This document shows, one piece after another, positions 4,805 to 61,961 of a DNA stretch of 64,000 nucleotides. Origin of the DNA: an uncultured Gammaproteobacteria bacterium. Its GTDB lineage: Bacteria; Patescibacteriota; Patescibacteriia; 2-12-FULL-60-25. The first letter of the stretch is position 1; every line of letters starts with the position of its first letter. The stretch lies in contig CAZKEE010000001.1 of NCBI GenBank assembly GCA_964551765.1, forward strand, positions 33,458-97,457, in the 5' to 3' direction. The notes below the pieces were generated by a model. It saw nothing but the letters and a program-made list of their open reading frames with translations, ran no database searches and was not told the DNA's origin. Both the position numbers and the translations under genes were made by a program.

Positions 4805-6652
4805 ATGTCTTTTTTTGCCTGCACCAATACGTATCAGAACATGATATACTTTTTATACTGCATGAAAAAAGCATTTTTATTAGACTGCCTACATCATATC
4901 TTTTTCATTGCCGCTTTCGTATTGCCGGTCTTGGCATTCGTAATATACGTTCCAGGTTATGCCGTCATTGCTGCTTGTAGCTTAGAAAACATCCCATTCA
5001 TCAACACGCAGATCAGTGAATTTGCGAATTTTGATACAAAAGCAGCAAATGCCTTAGACGGTATAGAGAACCTTATAGATAATGGCGTCGTCTCGGAAAA
5101 TGGGCCCGTGCTCTCTTACAAAACCGCACTTCAACAATGGGGTGCGCAAAGTAAAGATTACATAGATGCTTTACAAAGGTATAAAGTCGCACTCGATGCA
5201 AACGCCAGCGCTAGTAGCTATGATGAACATGTTATGACCTGCTCAGTCGCAGTGTCTGAGAATCAAAGGCTGCAAAACGTAGGTGTCCAGCTCAAAAGTT
5301 CTGAAAATATCATCAATCAACTTCAAGCCGATGCGCTGAAATGGCACGGAAATACGAACGACCCACTTGCAGCATCGCAATTTTATCTCAGACCTATCGA
5401 TAAAGTAGATACCATACCCTCGGATCATAAAGTTATCGTAGCCGTCATTGACGAAGGCGTGAACATCTACCAAGAAGACCTGGTCGGACATATATGGACC
5501 AACTCGAATGAGGTGGACGGGAACGGCATCGACGATGATGGAAACGGCTTTATCGATGACGTCCACGGATATAATTTCGTGAAGGGCAGCGGTGAGCTCA
5601 CGCCATATGGTAGTCATGGCACACATGTAGCCGGTCTTATAGCAGCTTCACAAAATAACGGTAAAGGAATAGAAGGTATAGCTCGAAATGCCCTTATCAT
5701 GCCCCTTATCGTTGGTGACGATAAGACGATTCCTATGGCTAACGTGGTTTCGGCGATAAAATACGCGGTAAATAATGGTGCAGATATTATCAATCTGTCA
5801 CTTGGCCTACGTGGTACCCAGTCTTATTCGACAGACTACGATGATGCGATCGGGTATGCCTTTGAACGCGGGGTCCTGGTTGTTGCTTCGGCCGGAAACG
5901 GTGACATATTGAACGGCAGCGGAGAGGACACGGGTGTCTATAAAACATCACCTGTTTGCAATGACAACGCCGAAAACATGGTTCTGGGCGTTGGGGCGAT
6001 AAATATTTTTGCGCAAAAAGCTCCTTGGTCGAACTTTGGCCCATGTGTTGATCTTTATGCCCCTGGAGAATCCATTCTCTCAACTGCCGTCTCAGCCTTT
6101 GATGGGTCCGAGTACGCAATTGATAGTGGAACATCGTTCTCAGCTCCAATCGTAACTGGTGTCGCTGCTGAGTTGAAGGCCATCTATTCCGACTTGAACC
6201 CCAAGGAGATTGTCTATCATCTAAAAAATACTGCCAGGATTATCAAAGGCATCCGCGTCATCGATATGCGCGCCGCCTTAGGCGCAACGCCTAAACGTGT
6301 AGCAATGGACTTACTTCCTCGTGTAGTCCCGCAAGCAATCGATTGTCCGCCAAATTCAATCCCTTTAAATGGTACCTGTGTCTGTTTGGTCGGTTATGAG
6401 AAAGACGCCTTTACGCTTACCTGCAATTCTCCGACGAACCAGCCGGCTACGCCCATACAAACTCCAGTCGCCCTCGCGATGCCCCCTGCTCAGCCAAAGA
6501 AGGAAAGCAACTGCCCCCTCGTGGGGGACACGAAGACGAAAAGGTACTACGCAAAAAACGACAAACGTGTGCCGAAAATTGTAGCTAAGAACCGAATTTG
6601 TTTCTCGGACGATAAGCAGGCGAAAACAAAGGGATACAAAAAAATAAAGTAA
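4805..6652 (+). CDS. Subtilisin-like serine peptidase (S8 family), secreted or membrane-anchored; low-GC island
   Basis: Asp/His/Ser triad motifs VAVIDEGV, HGTHVAGLIAA and GTSFSAPIVTG. N-terminal hydrophobic segment. GC far below genome average. Start codon uncertain (alternative Met near 4861). Confidence 0.85.
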   Translation: MSFFACTNTYQNMIYFLYCMKKAFLLDCLHHIFFIAAFVLPVLAFVIYVPGYAVIAACSLENIPFINTQISEFANFDTKAANALDGIENLIDNGVVSENGPVLSYKTALQQWGAQSKDYIDALQRYKVALDANASASSYDEHVMTCSVAVSENQRLQNVGVQLKSSENIINQLQADALKWHGNTNDPLAASQFYLRPIDKVDTIPSDHKVIVAVIDEGVNIYQEDLVGHIWTNSNEVDGNGIDDDGNGFIDDVHGYNFVKGSGELTPYGSHGTHVAGLIAASQNNGKGIEGIARNALIMPLIVGDDKTIPMANVVSAIKYAVNNGADIINLSLGLRGTQSYSTDYDDAIGYAFERGVLVVASAGNGDILNGSGEDTGVYKTSPVCNDNAENMVLGVGAINIFAQKAPWSNFGPCVDLYAPGESILSTAVSAFDGSEYAIDSGTSFSAPIVTGVAAELKAIYSDLNPKEIVYHLKNTARIIKGIRVIDMRAALGATPKRVAMDLLPRVVPQAIDCPPNSIPLNGTCVCLVGYEKDAFTLTCNSPTNQPATPIQTPVALAMPPAQPKKESNCPLVGDTKTKRYYAKNDKRVPKIVAKNRICFSDDKQAKTKGYKKIK

Positions 6653-6670
6653 AAAATCCCCTGGGGGGGA

Positions 6671-7198
6671 TTACGATGCGGGCGGCCGCCTGATAATCGA
6701 CCGCACAACCGCGCCATGTTCGAGGCAGAGCACGGTGGGGACCTGGCCGGTCGCGACATCGAAATGGAAATGCGAGAAGATGCCCATGCGGATGCCATCG
6801 ACCTGATCGTCGCGATAGCGGCGCTTGAGCCCGGCCCAGAGGTCCGCGTACGTGCTTTCGAGCATCTCCGCGTCGAAGTACAGGCGTTGATACGCGGTGC
6901 CGGGCCTATCGCGCAGGGGGCCGAAGATGTCCGGGACCTGGCGCGCCGGCACGTCGAACGTGAGCGGGATGGCGTCGAAGCGCAACACGTGCACGGTGAT
7001 GATGCCTGGCCCGCGCGTGTCGTCGCGGAAGCCTTGACGCAACACGGTCTGCACGAGATCGGCCTTGAGCAGGCGTCGCGTGCCCTCGGAAAGCAGGCTT
7101 GCCAGGATGTCTTCGCCCGGGGCGGAGCCCAGGAGGAAGACGCGATTGTTCATCTGCCAAAATTGGCGAAGGAGCGGATGTGCGAAATGAGCGTCCAT
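6671..7198 (-). CDS. Hypothetical protein, weakly metallophosphoesterase-like (YfcE/MJ0936-like motifs DxH ... SHFH)
   Basis: 175-aa ORF fills the gap between the subtilisin gene and dnaG. The plus-strand alternative is the junk N-terminal extension of the dnaG ORF. Motif match is weak. Confidence 0.4.
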   Translation of the reverse strand: MDAHFAHPLLRQFWQMNNRVFLLGSAPGEDILASLLSEGTRRLLKADLVQTVLRQGFRDDTRGPGIITVHVLRFDAIPLTFDVPARQVPDIFGPLRDRPGTAYQRLYFDAEMLESTYADLWAGLKRRYRDDQVDGIRMGIFSHFHFDVATGQVPTVLCLEHGAVVRSIIRRPPAS

Positions 7199-41184: not shown

Positions 41185-41553
41185 ATGGACGAAAACCCAC
41201 AGGCCGTCGAGCTCCACGTGTGCCGCGGCATGAACTCTTGTGCCGGCAAGGGCAAAGACGGTTCCGGTGCGATGGCCGGCGGCGGTTCTTGCGCCACCGC
41301 GTCCACCCATCATTGTGCCGGCAACAATGAATGCAAAGGCCAGGGCGGTTGCGGATATGGCTCTGCCGAGGTGCAGGAACATCCGGGCGAGAATGCGTGC
41401 AAAGGCCAGGGTGGGTGCGCCGTGCCCATCACGACCAATCTGAGCACCGATGGCACGAACAAGGACAAACCGGTGTGGGACCTGGCGCGCAAGTTGTTCG
41501 AGGCCCGCATGGCGAAGCAGGGCAAGGACGTGGCCCCAGCGCCAAAGGCATAA
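41185..41553 (+). CDS. Cys-rich bufferin-like RiPP precursor candidate (8 Cys; duplicated CKGQGGC cores), no signal peptide
   Basis: 122 aa. Cx5C/Cx7C units; [15 protein letters not shown] resembles DUF2282 cores (GHSCAG / AGKNDC). In-frame stop at 41119 and no alternative start upstream. Stop is 1 nt before the MNIO start. Confidence 0.6.
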
Positions 41554-41554
41554 C

Positions 41555-42394
41555 ATGATCGCGCCACGGCTCGGCTTGCCGAACCTCGGCATCGGGGTCG
41601 GTTTGCGCATGCCGCATGTCCCGTATGTGCTCGAACATCGGCCGAAGGTCGAGTGGTTCGAGATCATCTCGGAGAACTTCATGGGCTCGCATGGACGGCC
41701 CATGAGCCAGCTCGACGAGGTCGCGGAGCGCTATCCCATCGTCTTGCATGGCGTCTCCCTCTCCATCGGGAGCACGGATGCCGTGGACCGCGGCTATCTC
41801 GCGGCGCTCAAGTCGCTCGCCACGCGCATGCGAACGCCGTGGGTCTCCGATCATCTCTGCTGGACGGGCGTGAACGGTCTCAATACGCATGATCTCTTGC
41901 CGCTCCCGTTCACTGAGGCGTCTTTGCGACATGTCATCGCGCGCGTGCGGATGGTGCAAGAGGTCCTCGAGCGGCCCCTCGTCCTCGAAAACCCCAGCAG
42001 CTATGTCGCCTTCGCGTCTTCGAGCATGGGCGAGGCCAAGTTCCTCTCGCGCCTCACCGAGGCCACGGGCTGCGGTCTGCTCCTCGACGTGAACAACGTG
42101 TATGTGACGAGCCGCAATCTTGGGCTCGACCCGCTCGCGTATCTCGACGCCTTGCCGCATGACCGCGTCGTGCAATACCACGTGGCGGGCCATACCGATG
42201 CCGGCACCCACCTCATCGATACCCACGATGCGCCGGTCTGTGATGCGGTGTGGGACCTCTATGGAAAAGCGCTCGCGCTCACCGGTCCAGTATCGACCCT
42301 TCTCGAATGGGATGCGAAGCTTCCCACCTTCCCCGAGCTTGTCGCCGAGGCCGACAAGGCGCGTCAGTATCACCGACATCCTGCCTATGCCTGA
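41555..42394 (+). CDS. DUF692 multinuclear non-heme iron oxidative enzyme (MNIO; MbnB/BufB-like)
   Basis: [56 protein letters not shown] and HVAGH family signatures. Confidence 0.8.
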
Positions 42395-42989
42395 TCTGCA
42401 TGCCGTGCAAACCTGGATGTTCGACGCGATCACCCGTCCGCGCACCATCCTGCCCGATGAGATAGGGGAGCGTCTTCGCGGGTCGCCGACCCTTCCGCCA
42501 GCACGCGGCCTGGCCATCTATCAAGATGGATATGTCTCGCGTCTCGTCGAGTGCCTGGAAAAACAATTCCGCTTCCTGCACATGACGCTCGGCGATGAGG
42601 TCTTCGCGGCCTTCGCGCGCGACTATATTGCCGCCCATCCGCCGTCAAGCCATACCCTGGCCGATCTCGGCGCGCGTTTTCCCGACCATCTGCGGGAGAC
42701 GCGTCCGCCGAAAGAGGGGACATCACCCGATTGGCGCGACTTCCTCATCGACCTCGCCCGCTATGAACTGGCCTGGTCCGAGGTCTTTGATGCGCCGCAG
42801 GCGCAGGCCCTGCGAAAGCTCGCCTGCGACTATCCGGTGCATGCCTATGTGGACGCCTTGCGCCGTGACGCGACGACCGAGATGCCGGCCGCCCGACCGA
42901 CCTTGCTCGTCCTGGACCGCCCCGACCTGACCGTGCGCGTTCGCGAGCTGGAAGAACACGTGATACCATCGCGACACATCATATTATGA
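42387..42989 (+). CDS. DUF2063 partner protein (MbnC/BufC-like), short form
   Basis: 8-nt overlap with the MNIO gene. N-terminal [15 protein letters not shown] is typical of DUF2063. 200 aa, so likely the N-terminal domain only. Confidence 0.6.
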
Positions 42990-43375
42990 CCGACACACCC
43001 ATGAAGAAAGATGAAGAGCTCTCTCCCGAGCTCTATCGCGTGGCCCGCGCAAAGGGCACGGAACCGGCCTTCACCGGCGCTTATGTGAACGAACATGCGA
43101 AGGGGATGTATCACTGCGCGGTCTGCGGGGCCGAGCTGTTCTCGTCCGACACCAAGTTCGATTCCGGCACGGGATGGCCGAGCTTCACCGAGCCCGCCAA
43201 TCTCGCCAATGTCGAGCTCCATGACGACGACAGCCTGGGCATGCGGCGCACCGAGGTGACCTGCAAAAAATGCGGCGCGCATCTGGGACATGTCTTCGAT
43301 GACGGCCCGAGCGACAAGGGCGGCAAGCGCTATTGCATCAATTCCGTGTGTCTTGCGCTGAAAAAGCAAGAATAG
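42986..43375 (+). CDS. msrB: Peptide-methionine (R)-S-oxide reductase MsrB (cytoplasmic), translationally coupled to the MNIO operon
   Basis: ATGA overlap with DUF2063 stop. HCAVCG...[16 protein letters not shown]...RYCIN SelR motifs. Confidence 0.85.
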
Positions 43376-43413
43376 ATTGTCCCGGAAGGTCTTGCATGCT
43401 ACGGTGAACATCC

Positions 43414-43980
43414 ATGGAGATCACGGATTCCCATCTCATCAAGGCGCATCTCGCGGGGGAAAAGGGCGCGTTCGACATCCTCGTCGCGCGGTATCTGCGT
43501 GCCGTGCATGCCGTGGCATTCCACTATGCCAAGAACCGCGCGGATGCCGAGGACATCGCGCAAGAGACCTTTCTCAAGGTATGGCGCCATCTGCAGCGCT
43601 TTGACACGGACAAGAACTTCAAGCCGTGGGTCTTGCAGATCACCAAGAACCAGGCCTTGGACCATCTCAAAAAGAAACGTCCGATGACGTTCTCGTCCAT
43701 CGAACAAGAGGACGTGGACCTGCTCGACCTCATCCCGGACACCTCCCCTTTGCCGGACGCATTGGCAAGACGCGCCGAAGAGATCGGCGGCCTGCGCGAG
43801 ACCCTGGACGGGCTGCCGGCGTCTGACAGAAAATTGCTTTTTTTCCGCTATATGAAGGGATTTTCCTTCAAAGAGATCGCGGAAGAGCTTGGTGAGGTCC
43901 TGGATACCGTCAAAAGCCGCCATCGCCGCCTCTTGCTGAAGCTCCGCAAAGAACTGCTCAATGCGGCCCCGTGGTCCTGA
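43414..43980 (+). CDS. ECF-type RNA polymerase sigma factor
   Basis: Sigma-70 region 2 (DAEDIAQETFLKVWRH) and region 4 (LLFFRYMKGFSFKEIAEELG). Confidence 0.85.
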   Translation: MEITDSHLIKAHLAGEKGAFDILVARYLRAVHAVAFHYAKNRADAEDIAQETFLKVWRHLQRFDTDKNFKPWVLQITKNQALDHLKKKRPMTFSSIEQEDVDLLDLIPDTSPLPDALARRAEEIGGLRETLDGLPASDRKLLFFRYMKGFSFKEIAEELGEVLDTVKSRHRRLLLKLRKELLNAAPWS

Positions 43981-44405
43981 AAAACACGCACCGAAACGGA
44001 CCCGACCCTCGTAATGAGGGTATGGTGAGTTTGCCCGATACTGCGCCCCGCGAAGGCCTGCTCCAAGAGATCTTGGCCGCGGTGGAACGTCAAGAACAGA
44101 CCCGCGCCGCCCGAAGGCGTTTTTGGGGGTTCCTGTTCCTGTGCGGCGCATCGCTTTGGGCGGTCATCTCGATGTCCATGGCCTTGGCCGCCGACCTGCG
44201 GCATTCCGGCTTTTTGGCCTTTGCCTCTTTGCTCTTCACGAACGGCGGTGACGTGCTCGCCAATTGGCGGGAGTTCTCTTATTCCTTGCTCGAGTCCTTG
44301 CCGGTCACCGAGCTCATCCTGACCTTGGGTCTCGGTCTCGCGGGCATGTATGCCTCGCGCTCGCTCCTGACCCGTCATGAACGCCTATGGACCCCCAACG
44401 CATAG
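43971..44405 (+). CDS. Putative membrane anti-sigma factor
   Basis: Overlaps the sigma gene stop. Cytoplasmic N-segment then TM helices. GTG start at 43971 or ATG at 44022. Confidence 0.45.
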   Translation: MVLKNTHRNGPDPRNEGMVSLPDTAPREGLLQEILAAVERQEQTRAARRRFWGFLFLCGASLWAVISMSMALAADLRHSGFLAFASLLFTNGGDVLANWREFSYSLLESLPVTELILTLGLGLAGMYASRSLLTRHERLWTPNA

Positions 44406-58344: not shown

Positions 58345-59130
58345 TCATGGATCGGTGAAAAGGGACAATTGTACGAATGACGGGCGGCCGCGCAGCACGA
58401 TCTCGGCCGCCCGACGGACGGCGGAATTCCGAGCCGTGACCGCGATGCGCATCAGGACCTTGTCCGCCCGTATCTTGCGCAGATGCGGCACGATGGTCTC
58501 GGGGACCGATGCATCGTGATACTTCTTCGGGTCGGGGACCGAGCCTTTGACATAGGCGCCTCGGACTCCCTCCGACAGCTCGCCGTCCGACTCGCACATG
58601 CGGCCTCCGTCGCCGCCATTGTAGCCGCGGCACATGAGCGGGGCGCTGGACCATCCAGGACTATCGTCGAACTCCTCCCAGCGCGCTTCGTAGTATCCGC
58701 CGAGGGTCTTGAGCTGAACGAAGAAGTCGCCGACGAATTCCGCTCCCCACATCCCGACAAGCTGGGTGATCCAGATGGGCGGGAAGACCAGGGTCTTGTT
58801 GAAGCGCGTCTTGGTCACGATGATGCTCGCCGTATAGGAGCTCGCGCCGCTCACGTCGTTTCCTTCCAGGATGCCATCACGCGAGCCTTGCTCCGTCTCG
58901 AACCCTTTCTCGAGAAGCAGGTCAAAGACCGTGGCTTGACCTTGTTCCCGCGACAATAAGCGGCAGGTCGGTCCCGGGATGAGGCTGAAGGGACCTTCGA
59001 GCATCACGCCGACCACGAGATGGGCCGTCCAGCGCCTGCCGTCCAGCGCGTCCAGACGCCACAGCTGACCGCGTTCCTCGAAAAAACATCCGGGCTCCGC
59101 TTTGAGCGGCGCCTTGCGCATTCTCTTCAT
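58345..59130 (-). CDS. Hypothetical protein
   Basis: 261-aa ORF. No motif recognised. Confidence 0.4.
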   Translation of the reverse strand: MKRMRKAPLKAEPGCFFEERGQLWRLDALDGRRWTAHLVVGVMLEGPFSLIPGPTCRLLSREQGQATVFDLLLEKGFETEQGSRDGILEGNDVSGASSYTASIIVTKTRFNKTLVFPPIWITQLVGMWGAEFVGDFFVQLKTLGGYYEARWEEFDDSPGWSSAPLMCRGYNGGDGGRMCESDGELSEGVRGAYVKGSVPDPKKYHDASVPETIVPHLRKIRADKVLMRIAVTARNSAVRRAAEIVLRGRPSFVQLSLFTDP

Positions 59131-59237
59131 GTGCTCCTCTTTTCATCGAAAGGGCGTTGAACGTGCGCGAAAATACCATGGACCGGCCTTCGCGTCAATC
59201 AAAAACCCCCGGCTCCGGGGGTTTTTTCGTTTGCGAA

Positions 59238-59780
59238 CTATTTCCCTTCGCCCTTGCAGGAACCACCCTTGCCCATGCATTTCCCGCCCATGCACATGGC
59301 CCCGCCCTTACAATACTTGTGATCGAGCGAAAGCTTGCCGGGTCCGCCGAGCAAGAGCGCGATGGCGGTCGCGAGCAACATGAGGTCGGCATCGCCCTTG
59401 GGCAAGCTGAAACCCTTGGCCATGCCCCAGGCCACCAGCATATTGATGGTGATGAGGGCCGCGGCCTGACGCGTGCACAGGCCCAGGATGAGGGCCAAGC
59501 CGCCCAAGAACTCGGTCAAAGCCGAGAGATAGGCGAACAAGGTGGGCAAGGGGAAGCCGAGATTGGCCACCATGCCGGTGAACATGTCCATGCCGCCGAA
59601 CAATTTCCCATACCCATGCAGGACCAGGATGATACCGGCGGCCAAGCGCAGGATGAGCTTGGCTTTTGCGCCCTTCCAATGCTTGTGCATGTGGCCCGCG
59701 CCATGGCAGTCGCACCCGGAGGAGTTGCACGTGCCATCCGCGCATTTCCCGCAATGATCGTTCTTACAGCAGTCCATCAT
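59238..59780 (-). CDS. DoxX-family membrane protein with Cys-rich N- and C-terminal tails
   Basis: DoxX core (LRLAAGIILVLHGYGKLFGG...). Tails CCKNDHCGKCADGTCNSSGCDCHG and CKGGAMCMGGKCMGKGGSCKGEGK. Confidence 0.7.
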   Translation of the reverse strand: MMDCCKNDHCGKCADGTCNSSGCDCHGAGHMHKHWKGAKAKLILRLAAGIILVLHGYGKLFGGMDMFTGMVANLGFPLPTLFAYLSALTEFLGGLALILGLCTRQAAALITINMLVAWGMAKGFSLPKGDADLMLLATAIALLLGGPGKLSLDHKYCKGGAMCMGGKCMGKGGSCKGEGK

Positions 59781-59815
59781 AAAATGACGTGATGTGGATA
59801 AGTTACCCGTCTATA

Positions 59816-60370
59816 TTACTTGCCGTTCGCCTTGGCCATCAACTCGCTCAGTTTGGCCTCGTCAAGGGGACCGGTGAAACGGGCAGCCTCTTTGCCGGAG
59901 GCCGTGAAGGCGATGGTGGTGCGCTCGGACGTCACGTTCAAGGCCTTGGCCCAGGCCACGCCCTCGTCCGTCACTTGATTGTCCTTGAAGTTCACGCGCA
60001 ACAGGGGCGTGCCGAACTTCTTGCCATCGAACAATTTGACCAAGGCCTCATGCTCGGTGCGCTCATCCTTGTTCCAGTCGGCGTAGAAGTTCAACAGATA
60101 CGGCTTTTTCCCGTTCAGGTCGGCATAGCGCTCGGGCGTCTCGCGCATGTACTCGGAGCCGGCCGTGAAATCCGGGTCCACGTCCGTGACCTGGTCTTTC
60201 GGCAAAAGACCCGCGGCCGGGGGCGCGGCGGGAGCGGCAGGTTGCTTGGGCGGCTCGGGCGGCGCTTTGGGTTCTTGCTTGGCGCAACCGGCGCCGAGGG
60301 TGGCCACGGCCAGGCCGAGGACGGCGGCGCGCAGCAGGGGAGAGGAAGAAAAGGGTTTGGACATAGGCAT
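59816..60370 (-). CDS. Thioredoxin-like fold lipoprotein lacking the CxxC motif
   Basis: Lipobox LGAGC, Pro-rich linker. Trx-fold motif position reads FYADWNKD, not WCxxC. Confidence 0.5.
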   Translation of the reverse strand: MPMSKPFSSSPLLRAAVLGLAVATLGAGCAKQEPKAPPEPPKQPAAPAAPPAAGLLPKDQVTDVDPDFTAGSEYMRETPERYADLNGKKPYLLNFYADWNKDERTEHEALVKLFDGKKFGTPLLRVNFKDNQVTDEGVAWAKALNVTSERTTIAFTASGKEAARFTGPLDEAKLSELMAKANGK

Positions 60371-60608
60371 GGAATGATGATGTCAGTTTACTTTGCTGTC
60401 TTGGGAAGGGGAATGTTCTTGGCTTCGGCCGGGATGACCGGCGCGGTCTTGGGGGTCGGCGCCGGTCGCGGCGGAGGAGGCGGCGGCGTCGCCCGCGCGC
60501 AGCCCGCGCCAAACAAGGCCAAGGCGGCGAGCGGGATGAGAATGCTCCGTTTCAACTGCATGTTCCGGTGGATGGTGGCCAGTATAGCATGCTACACTCG
60601 CAACTATC

Positions 60609-61961
60609 ATGCGCATATCCTTCCATGGCGCGACGCGCGAGGTCACGGGCTCCTGTTATCTCCTCGAGGCGGGCAAAAGCCGCATCCTCATAGACTGCGG
60701 GATGTTCCAAGGAAGCGCGTTCGCCGACGCCAAGAACTTCCGCGACTTCGGCTTCGATCCCAAGACCATAGACGCGGTCATCGTGACCCATGCGCATCTC
60801 GATCATGTGGGCCGCATCCCCAAGCTCCTCAAGGATGGCTTCACGGGCAAGGTCTATGCCACGGGGCCCACGGCCAAATTGGCCGCCCTCGTCTTGGAAG
60901 ATGCCGAGAACATCATGGAGGACGATTATAAACGCGAGTTCCGTCCCAAATTGTTCGAACGTTCCGATGTCGAACGCGCCATCAAGGCCTTCACCACGGT
61001 GGATTATTCGCGTCGCGTCAAATTGGACGGCGTCTCGTTCCGTTTCCGCGATGCCGGGCACATCCTCGGCTCGGCCTTCATCGAGATCGAAGAGGTCGGC
61101 GGGCCGCGCGTGGCGTTCTCCGGCGATCTGGGCAATGTGGACGACCCCATCCTCAAACCCACGGCGCAATTGGCCGAACAGGACGTGCTCGTGGTCGAGT
61201 CCACCTATGGCAATCGCTTGCACGAGAACATGTCGCGCCGCGCGCATGAGCTGCGCGACGTCATCGCGGACGCCATAAAACAGAAGGGCGTCCTGCTCAT
61301 CCCGGCCTTCGCCATCGAACGCACCCAGCTCCTGCTCTATGAGATCAACCAATTGGTCGAGAACCGCCTCGTTCCCTCGGTCGAGGTCTATCTGGACAGC
61401 CCTTTGGCCATCAAGGCCTCGGCGGTGATGCAGGAATATCCGCAATACTACAATGCGAACGCGCTCAAATTGGTCTCGACGGGGGATGATCTCTTCACCT
61501 TCCCGGGTTTGCACATGACGCTCTCGCGCGACGAGAGCAAAGGCATCAATGAGGCGCCAAAGCCCAAGGTCATCATCGCGGGCTCGGGCATGATGAACGC
61601 CGGCCGCATCCTGCACCATCTCGTGCGGTATCTGGGCACCAAGAGCACGACGGTGCTCATCATCGGGTATCAGGCCTCGGGCACGCTCGGACGCAAGCTC
61701 TATACGGGCGAACGCAAGGTGGACGTCTTGGGCGAACGCATACAGGTGAAGGCGCGCGTCACCTCCATCGGCGCCTACAGCGCGCATGCGGACCAGCATC
61801 AGCTCGTGCGCTGGATCGCCGGGGCCGCGCGACCCCCAAAACAGGTCTATTGCACGCATGGCGAAGAAGATGCTTCGGCCGCGCTCGCCTCGCGTATCTC
61901 CGAGGACCTGGACATCAAGGCCGACGTGCCGCGCTTCGAACAGACCATCACCCTCTCCTAG
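60609..61961 (+). CDS. MBL-fold beta-CASP ribonuclease (RNase J / CPSF-like)
   Basis: HAHLDHVG metallo-beta-lactamase motif 2. beta-CASP region with ESTYG and the C-terminal His motif. Confidence 0.75.
   Translation: MRISFHGATREVTGSCYLLEAGKSRILIDCGMFQGSAFADAKNFRDFGFDPKTIDAVIVTHAHLDHVGRIPKLLKDGFTGKVYATGPTAKLAALVLEDAENIMEDDYKREFRPKLFERSDVERAIKAFTTVDYSRRVKLDGVSFRFRDAGHILGSAFIEIEEVGGPRVAFSGDLGNVDDPILKPTAQLAEQDVLVVESTYGNRLHENMSRRAHELRDVIADAIKQKGVLLIPAFAIERTQLLLYEINQLVENRLVPSVEVYLDSPLAIKASAVMQEYPQYYNANALKLVSTGDDLFTFPGLHMTLSRDESKGINEAPKPKVIIAGSGMMNAGRILHHLVRYLGTKSTTVLIIGYQASGTLGRKLYTGERKVDVLGERIQVKARVTSIGAYSAHADQHQLVRWIAGAARPPKQVYCTHGEEDASAALASRISEDLDIKADVPRFEQTITLS

Follow-up and report, generated by a model that had tools for sequence, protein, structure and literature searches.

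A Patescibacteria-Type DoxX Protein with Cysteine-, Histidine-, and Methionine-Rich Tails, Encoded Behind a Thioredoxin-Fold Lipoprotein That Lacks CxxC

The DNA considered here, called the window in what follows, is a stretch of 64,000 nucleotides from an uncultured bacterium (GenBank assembly GCA_964551765.1, contig CAZKEE010000001.1, positions 33,458 to 97,457 of the forward strand) with a G+C content of 61.6%. Three co-directional open reading frames (ORFs) run from 60561 to 59238 on the reverse strand and encode, in that order, a 57-amino-acid lipoprotein ORF, a 184-amino-acid lipoprotein with a thioredoxin fold, and a 180-amino-acid membrane protein of the DoxX family. The DoxX protein carries tails rich in cysteine, histidine, and methionine at both termini, and the thioredoxin-fold lipoprotein has lost its CxxC motif. 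The parts of these two genes are as follows, in window coordinates.

59238..59780, reverse strand: gene of the DoxX-family membrane protein, 180 amino acids, stop codon included (ORF, Pfam, AlphaFold2)
59664..59780, reverse strand: DoxX N-terminal tail, residues 1–39, with 7 Cys and 5 His (MMDCCKNDHCGKCADGTCNSSGCDCHGAGHMHKHWKGAK; translation)
59325..59663, reverse strand: DoxX core, residues 40–152, four transmembrane helices
59238..59324, reverse strand: DoxX C-terminal tail, residues 153–180 plus stop codon, with 4 Cys, 3 Met, and 7 Lys (DHKYCKGGAMCMGGKCMGKGGSCKGEGK; translation)
59816..60370, reverse strand: gene of the thioredoxin-fold lipoprotein, 184 amino acids, CxxC lost (ORF, AlphaFold2, Foldseek)
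60065..60088, reverse strand: former active site FYADWNKD, residues 95–102 of the lipoprotein, aligned with FYADWCPEC and FYASWCPFC
60284..60298, reverse strand: lipobox LGAGC, residues 25–29 of the lipoprotein (sequence pattern)

The core of the membrane protein is that of an ordinary DoxX. The Pfam model (PF07681) matches residues 41–120 at 74.4 bits against a cutoff of 23.6, and 99 DoxX homologues were recovered. In an AlphaFold2 model built with 46 homologues, residues 40–150 form a compact bundle of four long transmembrane helices plus a short amphipathic helix at residues 64–73, with predicted local distance difference test (pLDDT) values above 90. The tails show no folded structure in the model (pLDDT 54–61 for residues 1–30 and 50–52 for the C-terminal tail, residues 158–180). 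Among the 46 sequences no column of the core holds a conserved cysteine, and cysteine averages at most 0.24 per core segment and about 0.8 per protein; the core thus has no relay of the DsbB or DsbD type. We infer that both tails most likely face the cytoplasm (N-in, C-in), because there are four helices, no signal peptide, and a charge bias of the kind described by the positive-inside rule. In the 46-sequence alignment the mean count of lysine plus arginine is 2.5 in the N-terminal tail, 0.5 in loop 2, and 5.4 in the C-terminal tail, compared with 1.3 in loop 1 and 1.9 in loop 3, which gives 8.4 on the side that holds the tails and 3.2 on the other.

The DoxX protein begins with MMDCCKNDHCGKCADGTCNSSGCDCHGAGHMHKH and ends with CKGGAMCMGGKCMGKGGSCKGEGK, and its two disordered segments together hold 11 cysteines and 6 histidines in 67 residues. 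Against a background of 0.69% cysteine in 20 long genes of the window, the cysteine enrichment has a binomial p of 1.6e-12. Extensions of the same kind, rich in Cys, His, and Met, are found at the N terminus, the C terminus, or both in nearly all of the roughly 50 closest homologues (50–72% identity), and the more distant homologues among the 99 lack them. Recurrent N-terminal motifs are CC or CxxC (e.g., MKCENVCCDN and MNTSLKCCGS), the recurrent C-terminal motif is CCx4-5CC (e.g., GCCGGNGACCEKK and DCCQDEECCGG), and histidine runs of the form HxHKH or HDHGHDH recur at the termini (e.g., HEGHDHKH and HDHGHDHNHD). A relative with 72% identity (P0002) starts MMDCCKNG...CGNSSCDC, the DoxX at locus L013 starts MLGMKNGHCMVCANGACDAKKCVCH, and a C-terminal tail like that of the window, GAKCMGMGAKCKAGSCKGGSCKGEGEKKA, is found in L001/P0005. 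The window tails are among the richest in the subfamily.

With sampling limited to one genome per species, at least three tail cysteines were counted in 37 of the 49 Patescibacteria-type loci, compared with 1 of 28 from other phyla, among them Binatia, Deltaproteobacteria, Xanthobacteraceae, and Ignavibacteria (Fisher p = 2.5e-10). Tailed DoxX proteins thus form a subfamily characteristic of Patescibacteria. The records of the closest relatives are titled Candidatus Uhrbacteria. Many other loci (L014, L017, L019, L020, and other third-party annotation assemblies) are titled "uncultured Gammaproteobacteria bacterium" yet are Patescibacteria-like, and such titles are unfit for taxonomy; L020 is the same contig as L001 and shows synteny with the window and with Candidatus Uhrbacteria nzgw364. 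The library searched contained no paper on DoxX with Patescibacteria and no relevant paper tying DoxX to cysteine-rich tails or metallothionein, and likewise none for MauE with thioredoxin.

A separate observation concerns the N-terminal tail, where the segment CGK-CADGTCNSSGCDC (59700–59753, reverse strand, DoxX residues 10–26) shares the cysteine spacing of the cyclotide kalata B1 (CGETCVGGTCNTPGCTC). The spacing in the N-terminal tail of the L013 protein is related to that of the window (CMVCANGACDAKKCVC). The likeness to kalata B1 has an E value of 0.25 against PDB sequences, which is not significant, and it is treated as chance. PDB chains searched with a CC-rich C-terminal tail gave no match.

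In the 184-amino-acid protein encoded just before DoxX, a proline-rich linker joins the LGAGC lipobox to a C-terminal domain (residues 75–184) that AlphaFold2 models as a thioredoxin fold, beta-alpha-beta-alpha-beta-alpha-beta-beta-alpha, with pLDDT values of 70–90. Foldseek matches it to the C-terminal domain of DsbD (27–28% identity) and to thioredoxins with a probability of 1.00, and 346 PDB matches have E <= 1e-3. By sequence pattern the protein is a lipoprotein, and the lipobox is invariant in all six members of its family and in L001. The active-site segment FYADWNKD contains no CxxC; in alignments it occupies the same columns as FYA[SD]WCP[FE]C in relatives. The only cysteine is Cys29 of the lipobox; the mature protein is otherwise free of cysteine and is therefore unable to carry out thiol–disulfide exchange. 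A hidden Markov model search that covered 1.84 billion representatives gave 194 domain matches, of which 182 keep CxxC, most commonly as WCPTC, so the state seen in the window is derived and rare.

Identity of the lipoprotein is 32% to the WCPFC lipoprotein of L001 and 54–55% to the WCPEC protein P0105. At high identity the family comprises six 90% clusters, with WNKD at the site in three and WDLP, FNKT, and WCPEC (P0105) in one each. Across this six-member clade 56 columns are invariant, including DPDFTAGS.YM.ETP and RVN.KDNQVTDEGV, and DPDFTAGSEYMRETP is clade-invariant as well. At the cis-proline loop the aligned segment reads ERTTIAF in the window and QHTF in the CxxC-bearing relatives, without a proline, in a register taken from the sequence alignment. 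Because the rest of the protein is conserved, the CxxC-less form is taken to be under selection and probably survives as a noncatalytic binding or scaffold partner. The FNKT lipoprotein, at locus L011, is the one such case without a following DoxX; convergent to it lies a P-type ATPase (L011 1875–3488, reverse strand) whose TPCPL motif suggests a heavy-metal pump.

Much of this had been proposed in an earlier note on the same DNA, which described a DoxX with cysteine-rich cytoplasmic tails beside a lipoprotein of thioredoxin-like fold without CxxC. Both ORFs are exactly as it described them, the fold and the WNKD site are borne out by AlphaFold2 and Foldseek, and the cytoplasmic placement of the tails fits the charge bias. 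The note had named two findings that would count against it, namely tails that are not conserved in orthologues and a frameshifted fusion of small ORFs. The tails turn out to be conserved in kind, and the gene is one uninterrupted ORF with an architecture common to dozens of homologues, so a frameshifted fusion is rejected. The note further suggested that the lipoprotein has a metal- or peptide-binding role and not a redox role. The nonredox part holds, given a mature protein without cysteine. A metal site at the former CxxC is not supported, because that position is variable among the CxxC-less members (WNKD, WDLP, FNKT).

Relatives reveal the company that this subfamily keeps. In L001, where DoxX is 57% identical, the operon runs from a WCPFC thioredoxin lipoprotein through a 385-amino-acid Pyr_redox_2 flavoprotein to DoxX. 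The locus is syntenic with the window (cellulase-like, EamA, and beta-CASP genes on one side of the unit and SIMPL after DoxX), and the closest solved relatives of its flavoprotein are type II NADH dehydrogenases (NDH-2). In Candidatus Uhrbacteria nzgw364 (L010/L013) a WCPEC lipoprotein is followed directly by the cysteine-rich start of a DoxX gene that continues on contig L013. The window arrangement recurs in L008 (DoxX 72% identical), where the lipoprotein likewise has WNKD and the end of the small ORF is present. Clustering of neighbors finds an NDH-2-like gene immediately upstream of DoxX and on the same strand in 16 nonredundant loci. Together with the thioredoxin lipoproteins of the relatives, this identifies an NADH-oxidizing flavoprotein and an extracytoplasmic thioredoxin as the conserved functional partners of the tailed DoxX. 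A FemAB–RuvA pair convergent to DoxX in 29 loci is read as synteny and not as part of an operon. The window lineage has lost both the CxxC of the lipoprotein and the NDH-2 gene.

Other features of these loci can be noted beside this pattern. A second stable context joins a DHH-family protein, an NDH-2-like flavoprotein, and the tailed DoxX (L006, L007, L015, L019, L021, L027, L032, L042, and L048). The gene for valyl-tRNA synthetase lies divergently upstream of this block in the three gene-called loci (L006, L007, and the P0023 contig), and a SpoU methylase gene lies convergently downstream in five (L006, L007, L027, L032, and L042). L001 also encodes a 171-amino-acid lipoprotein (6583–7098, reverse strand; GDGVTWINKDRSGHAVRSD...) that is convergent to DoxX, has no Pfam match on record, and has no counterpart at that position in the window.

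The remaining features of the three-gene unit are its first ORF and the signals at its two ends.

60388..60561, reverse strand: proline-rich small lipoprotein ORF, 57 amino acids, lipobox LFGAGC, first gene of the putative operon (ORF)
60581..60610, reverse strand: promoter-like site 5' of the three-gene unit (consensus scan)
59201..59226, reverse strand: terminator-type hairpin with a G+C-rich stem of 11 bp and then a U run, 12 nucleotides past the DoxX stop codon (RNA fold)

The small ORF has a G+C content at third codon positions (GC3) of 0.79, and its C-terminal motif AP.IPAEA.N.PLP is kept in the lower-GC relative L008. No counterpart was called in L001 or L010, both of which keep CxxC, and on this basis the ORF appears restricted to the lineage without CxxC. 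An origin as a duplicated 5' end of the thioredoxin-like gene was rejected, since the likeness is limited to the lipobox and the proline-rich character and there is no similarity in DNA. The promoter-like site has 9 of 12 consensus matches and a TG extension and is a pattern match only; the hairpin folds at −23.6 kcal/mol (z = −2.9). The unit is flanked by a divergent beta-CASP/metallo-beta-lactamase gene (60609–61961, forward strand) and by an unrelated 261-amino-acid ORF (58345–59130, reverse strand). The latter is coding-like (GC3 0.79), has its own promoter-like site at 59198–59170, and has no match in Pfam or NCBIfam; it is present in the identical-strain contig L009 and missing at that position in L001 and L008. 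The neighbors in the gene context are this beta-CASP nuclease, EamA, SIMPL, and a Kef-type antiporter.

The window also holds a bufferin-type cluster. It consists of a BufA2-like precursor with two CKGQGGC units (41185–41553), BufB at about 41555–42394 (score 361.8 bits, cutoff 310), a BufC-like gene at about 42387–42989, and MsrB (42986–43375) at the fourth position of the MNIO operon. An extracytoplasmic function (ECF) sigma factor gene comes next, followed by an ORF in the anti-sigma position (43971–44405) that matches no family model. In Haemophilus and Neisseria one ECF sigma factor coregulates msrAB and an MNIO–DoxX operon (PMC7907618), and for this reason the linkage of MsrB and a sigma factor to the window cluster may be meaningful. 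MsrB was found in none of the 80 closest BufB loci. The cluster (41185–44405) lies in what appears to be a Candidatus Uhrbacteria genome. Its precursor has no N-terminal signal peptide and shares a C-terminal extension with a subgroup of homologues (L166, L138, and L127). Among the other precursor homologues (L093–L172) some start with twin-arginine-like signals (MNRRQFA...), and some have an unannotated domain of ~500 amino acids fused to their N-terminal side (L121, L142, L156, and L128).

What might the tails do? We propose that they would buffer or sense metal in the cytoplasm as appendages of a DoxX core with a redox role, a reading to which we give about an even chance. The ordinary four-helix core bears disordered tails, rich in lysine and dense in Cys, His, and Met, that would face the cytoplasm and bind soft or borderline metals (Zn, Ni, Cu(I), and Fe) with low specificity. 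Low-specificity binding is suggested by the Cys, His, and Met content, the CC pairs and HxH runs, the disorder, the richness in Lys and Gly, and the free variation in length; the coenrichment of His and Met with Cys argues for metal ligation over a pure thiol relay. At the membrane, beside a core with a presumed role in redox chemistry, the tails could buffer, store, or sense metal. The putative operon would run from the small lipoprotein through the thioredoxin-fold lipoprotein and DoxX to the terminator hairpin, and its products may interact physically. The ancestral unit may have been a MauE/MauD-like membrane module for thiol/quinone redox chemistry, now partly degenerate in the window, because DoxX follows a WCPxC lipoprotein in sister genomes and NDH-2 in 16 other genomes. 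In the window lineage the loss of NDH-2 and of the CxxC would have left the thioredoxin-fold protein as a noncatalytic binding or scaffold partner.

Several points weigh against this reading. The tails vary in length and hold anywhere from 0 to 11 cysteines, with fewer than three in 12 of the 49 Patescibacteria-type loci, and they are therefore dispensable for the function of the core. No metal-homeostasis gene lies beside the operon in the window, and the NDH-2 and thioredoxin context fits an electron-transfer role of the cysteine tails equally well. The richness in lysine may be intrinsic to whatever the tails do, which weakens the positive-inside argument. The biochemical function of any DoxX is poorly defined, and profile and sequence searches found no solved structure of a bacterial DoxX. 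The start codon bears on the matter, too. The public gene call for an identical sequence (P0001, 150 amino acids) begins at Met31 and omits the N-terminal tail, and no obvious Shine–Dalgarno sequence precedes the upstream ATG. Were Met31 the true start, the N-terminal tail would go untranslated and only the C-terminal tail would be real. This has a slight chance of being so: P0002, which is 72% identical over 88% of the query, and L013 both keep a cysteine-rich N-terminal extension in frame, most members of the subfamily have N-terminal cysteine motifs, and GC3 is 0.80 over the first 30 codons. The starts of P0002 and L013 and this GC3 value favor the long form.

The electron-transfer alternative treats the tails as redox hardware, either an Fe–S cluster or a dithiol/disulfide relay, with electrons passing from NDH-2 through a quinone site in DoxX to the thioredoxin lipoprotein, as a substitute for DsbD/CcdA or DsbB/VKOR. 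The same-strand NDH-2-like gene at 16 loci and the WCPxC lipoproteins upstream in L001 and L010/L013 speak for it, as do the DsbD gamma domain as the top structural match of the lipoprotein, the paired CC motifs that recur at a fixed spacing of 4–5 residues, and the membership of MauE, partnered by the thioredoxin-like MauD, in the DoxX clan (MauE and MauD models match weakly here). We consider it unlikely all the same, though it is the main rival. A count of 0 to 11 cysteines in motifs that are out of register is unlike an obligatory cofactor site, histidine-rich ends are atypical of thiol relays, and a core without conserved cysteines has nothing with which to carry reducing power from one side of the membrane to the other. 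Rich tails persist in the window though NDH-2 and CxxC are both gone, and NDH-2 is described as poorly represented in the Candidate Phyla Radiation (10.1101/2025.10.14.682086). A bolder version of the same idea is that the NDH-2 flavoprotein, the tailed DoxX, and the thioredoxin lipoprotein form an unrecognized minimal transmembrane redox or metal relay of Patescibacteria that replaces DsbD/CcdA or DsbB/VKOR, with the tails as the cytoplasmic entry port for electrons or metal and the window lineage as a case in which the relay was turned into a nonredox metal-handling device. This is a long shot; if true, the organisms served would be ones with almost no respiratory chain. The tails could also be extracytoplasmic, as disulfide-rich minidomains that are clients or partners of the thioredoxin-fold lipoprotein, an idea encouraged by the extracytoplasmic location of the partner lipoproteins and by the CxxCx4Cx4CxC spacing of the N-terminal tail, which recalls knotted peptides. 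It is improbable given the mean lysine and arginine content of the C-terminal (5.4) and N-terminal (2.5) tails, the absence of a signal peptide, the lack of any folded tail in the AlphaFold2 model, and the insignificance of the kalata B1 match; free His/Cys/Met tails are, moreover, typical of cytoplasmic metal sites.

The last alternative is the one from which the earlier note set out, that this DoxX is the fourth gene of a bufferin operon (BufD/HvfX), here moved by 16 kb, with tails that mimic CKGQGGC and a protein that acts together with the MNIO enzyme or is even a target of its modification. A genuine bufferin-type cluster without a DoxX of its own does lie in the window, HvfX (NF050144) is the sole NCBIfam model that the protein matches, and the C-terminal tail CKGGAMCMGGKCMGKGGSCKG resembles in composition the C[KA]G[QK]GGC units found in the precursor and in homologous proteins. 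The HvfX match, however, reaches 49.2 bits against a cutoff of 80 and covers only profile positions 3–85 of 165. All 46 subfamily members likewise match it weakly and in the N-terminal half only (best E 4.8e-17; 49 and 56 bits for the two that were scored individually). The gene lies 16 kb from the cluster, is encoded on the other strand, and has a promoter-like site and a terminator of its own. Colocalization fails from either side: no MNIO, BufC, or precursor gene lies within 5 kb of any of 80 related DoxX loci, and none of the 80 closest BufB loci (metagenomes, 56–64% identity) has DoxX within 6 kb, as against BufC in 75 and a precursor in 65. Tailed DoxX proteins occur in dozens of Patescibacteria genomes with NDH-2 or thioredoxin partners. 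In Caulobacter the buf2 cluster is naturally without doxX, and bufD1 is dispensable both for copper protection and for modification (PMC11626156). The likeness of the tails to CKGQGGC survives as one of composition (C, K, and G) in C-terminal tails of the window and L001 type; most relatives differ and have CCx4-5CC or histidine-rich ends instead. The idea of a detached bufferin DoxX is thus already largely refuted, and we regard it as very improbable. The DoxX gene should be left out of any case for an extended bufferin system, and the bufferin cluster of the window stands on its own.

DoxX is among the most widespread families of membrane proteins without a clear biochemical function. A phylum-level subfamily with conserved tails and defined partners offers a handle for experiments on metal binding and on NADH-dependent thiol chemistry. 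Such a subfamily is also relevant to the handling of metals and of envelope thiol redox in Patescibacteria, whose genomes are minimal and whose electron-transport chains are largely missing.

Among known systems, the window protein shares its Pfam family and four-helix core with DoxX proteins of the DoxX/MhqP/CatD type, including DoxX of M. tuberculosis. The family has been tied loosely to thiol, sulfur, and quinone redox stress, and a DoxX–SseA–SodA complex is described (Nambi et al. 2015, as related in PMC7907618). The window protein differs in its disordered Cys/His/Met tails at both termini, and in place of SseA and SodA its subfamily is partnered by a flavoprotein of the NDH-2 type or by a thioredoxin lipoprotein. 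BufD/HvfX belongs to the same Pfam family and has an MNIO cluster in the same 64 kb to recommend the comparison, but the window DoxX falls short of the HvfX cutoff, does not adjoin that cluster, shows no colocalization in 160 related loci, and belongs to another subfamily with other partners. The MauE/MauD pair, which is needed for maturation of the small subunit of methylamine dehydrogenase, offers a likeness in arrangement, with a four-helix protein of the DoxX clan encoded beside an extracytoplasmic thioredoxin-fold protein. The MauE model gives 22.8 bits on the window DoxX against a cutoff of 27, and the MauD model weakly matches the L001 partner. In contrast to that pair, there are no mau genes in the context, and the thioredoxin partner in the window is without CxxC. 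MauE is not known to carry cysteine-rich tails.

For the tails themselves the closest parallels are short, disordered, Cys/His-rich stretches that are also rich in glycine and charge and bear CC pairs and HxH runs, as in SlyD, HypB, ZntA, and metallothionein. The CxxCGC of the N-terminal extension of HypB and the CCCDGAC of ZntA-type ATPases are similar to the DoxX tails. The best documented parallel is SlyD, whose His- and Cys-rich C terminus binds Ni2+ and Zn2+ (PMC3292732). The window tails differ in standing on both ends of a membrane DoxX core and have no detectable sequence homology to such stretches. The lipoprotein has the fold and the lipoprotein anchor of DsbD gamma and ResA/CcmG-type proteins, and its relatives P0105 and L001 keep WCPxC; unlike these, it reads WNKD at the active site and is without a thiol once mature. 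DsbB/VKOR and DsbD-beta/CcdA relays differ in turn from the DoxX core, which lacks conserved cysteine pairs. The tailed DoxX is accordingly a variant within a known family and not a new kind of system.

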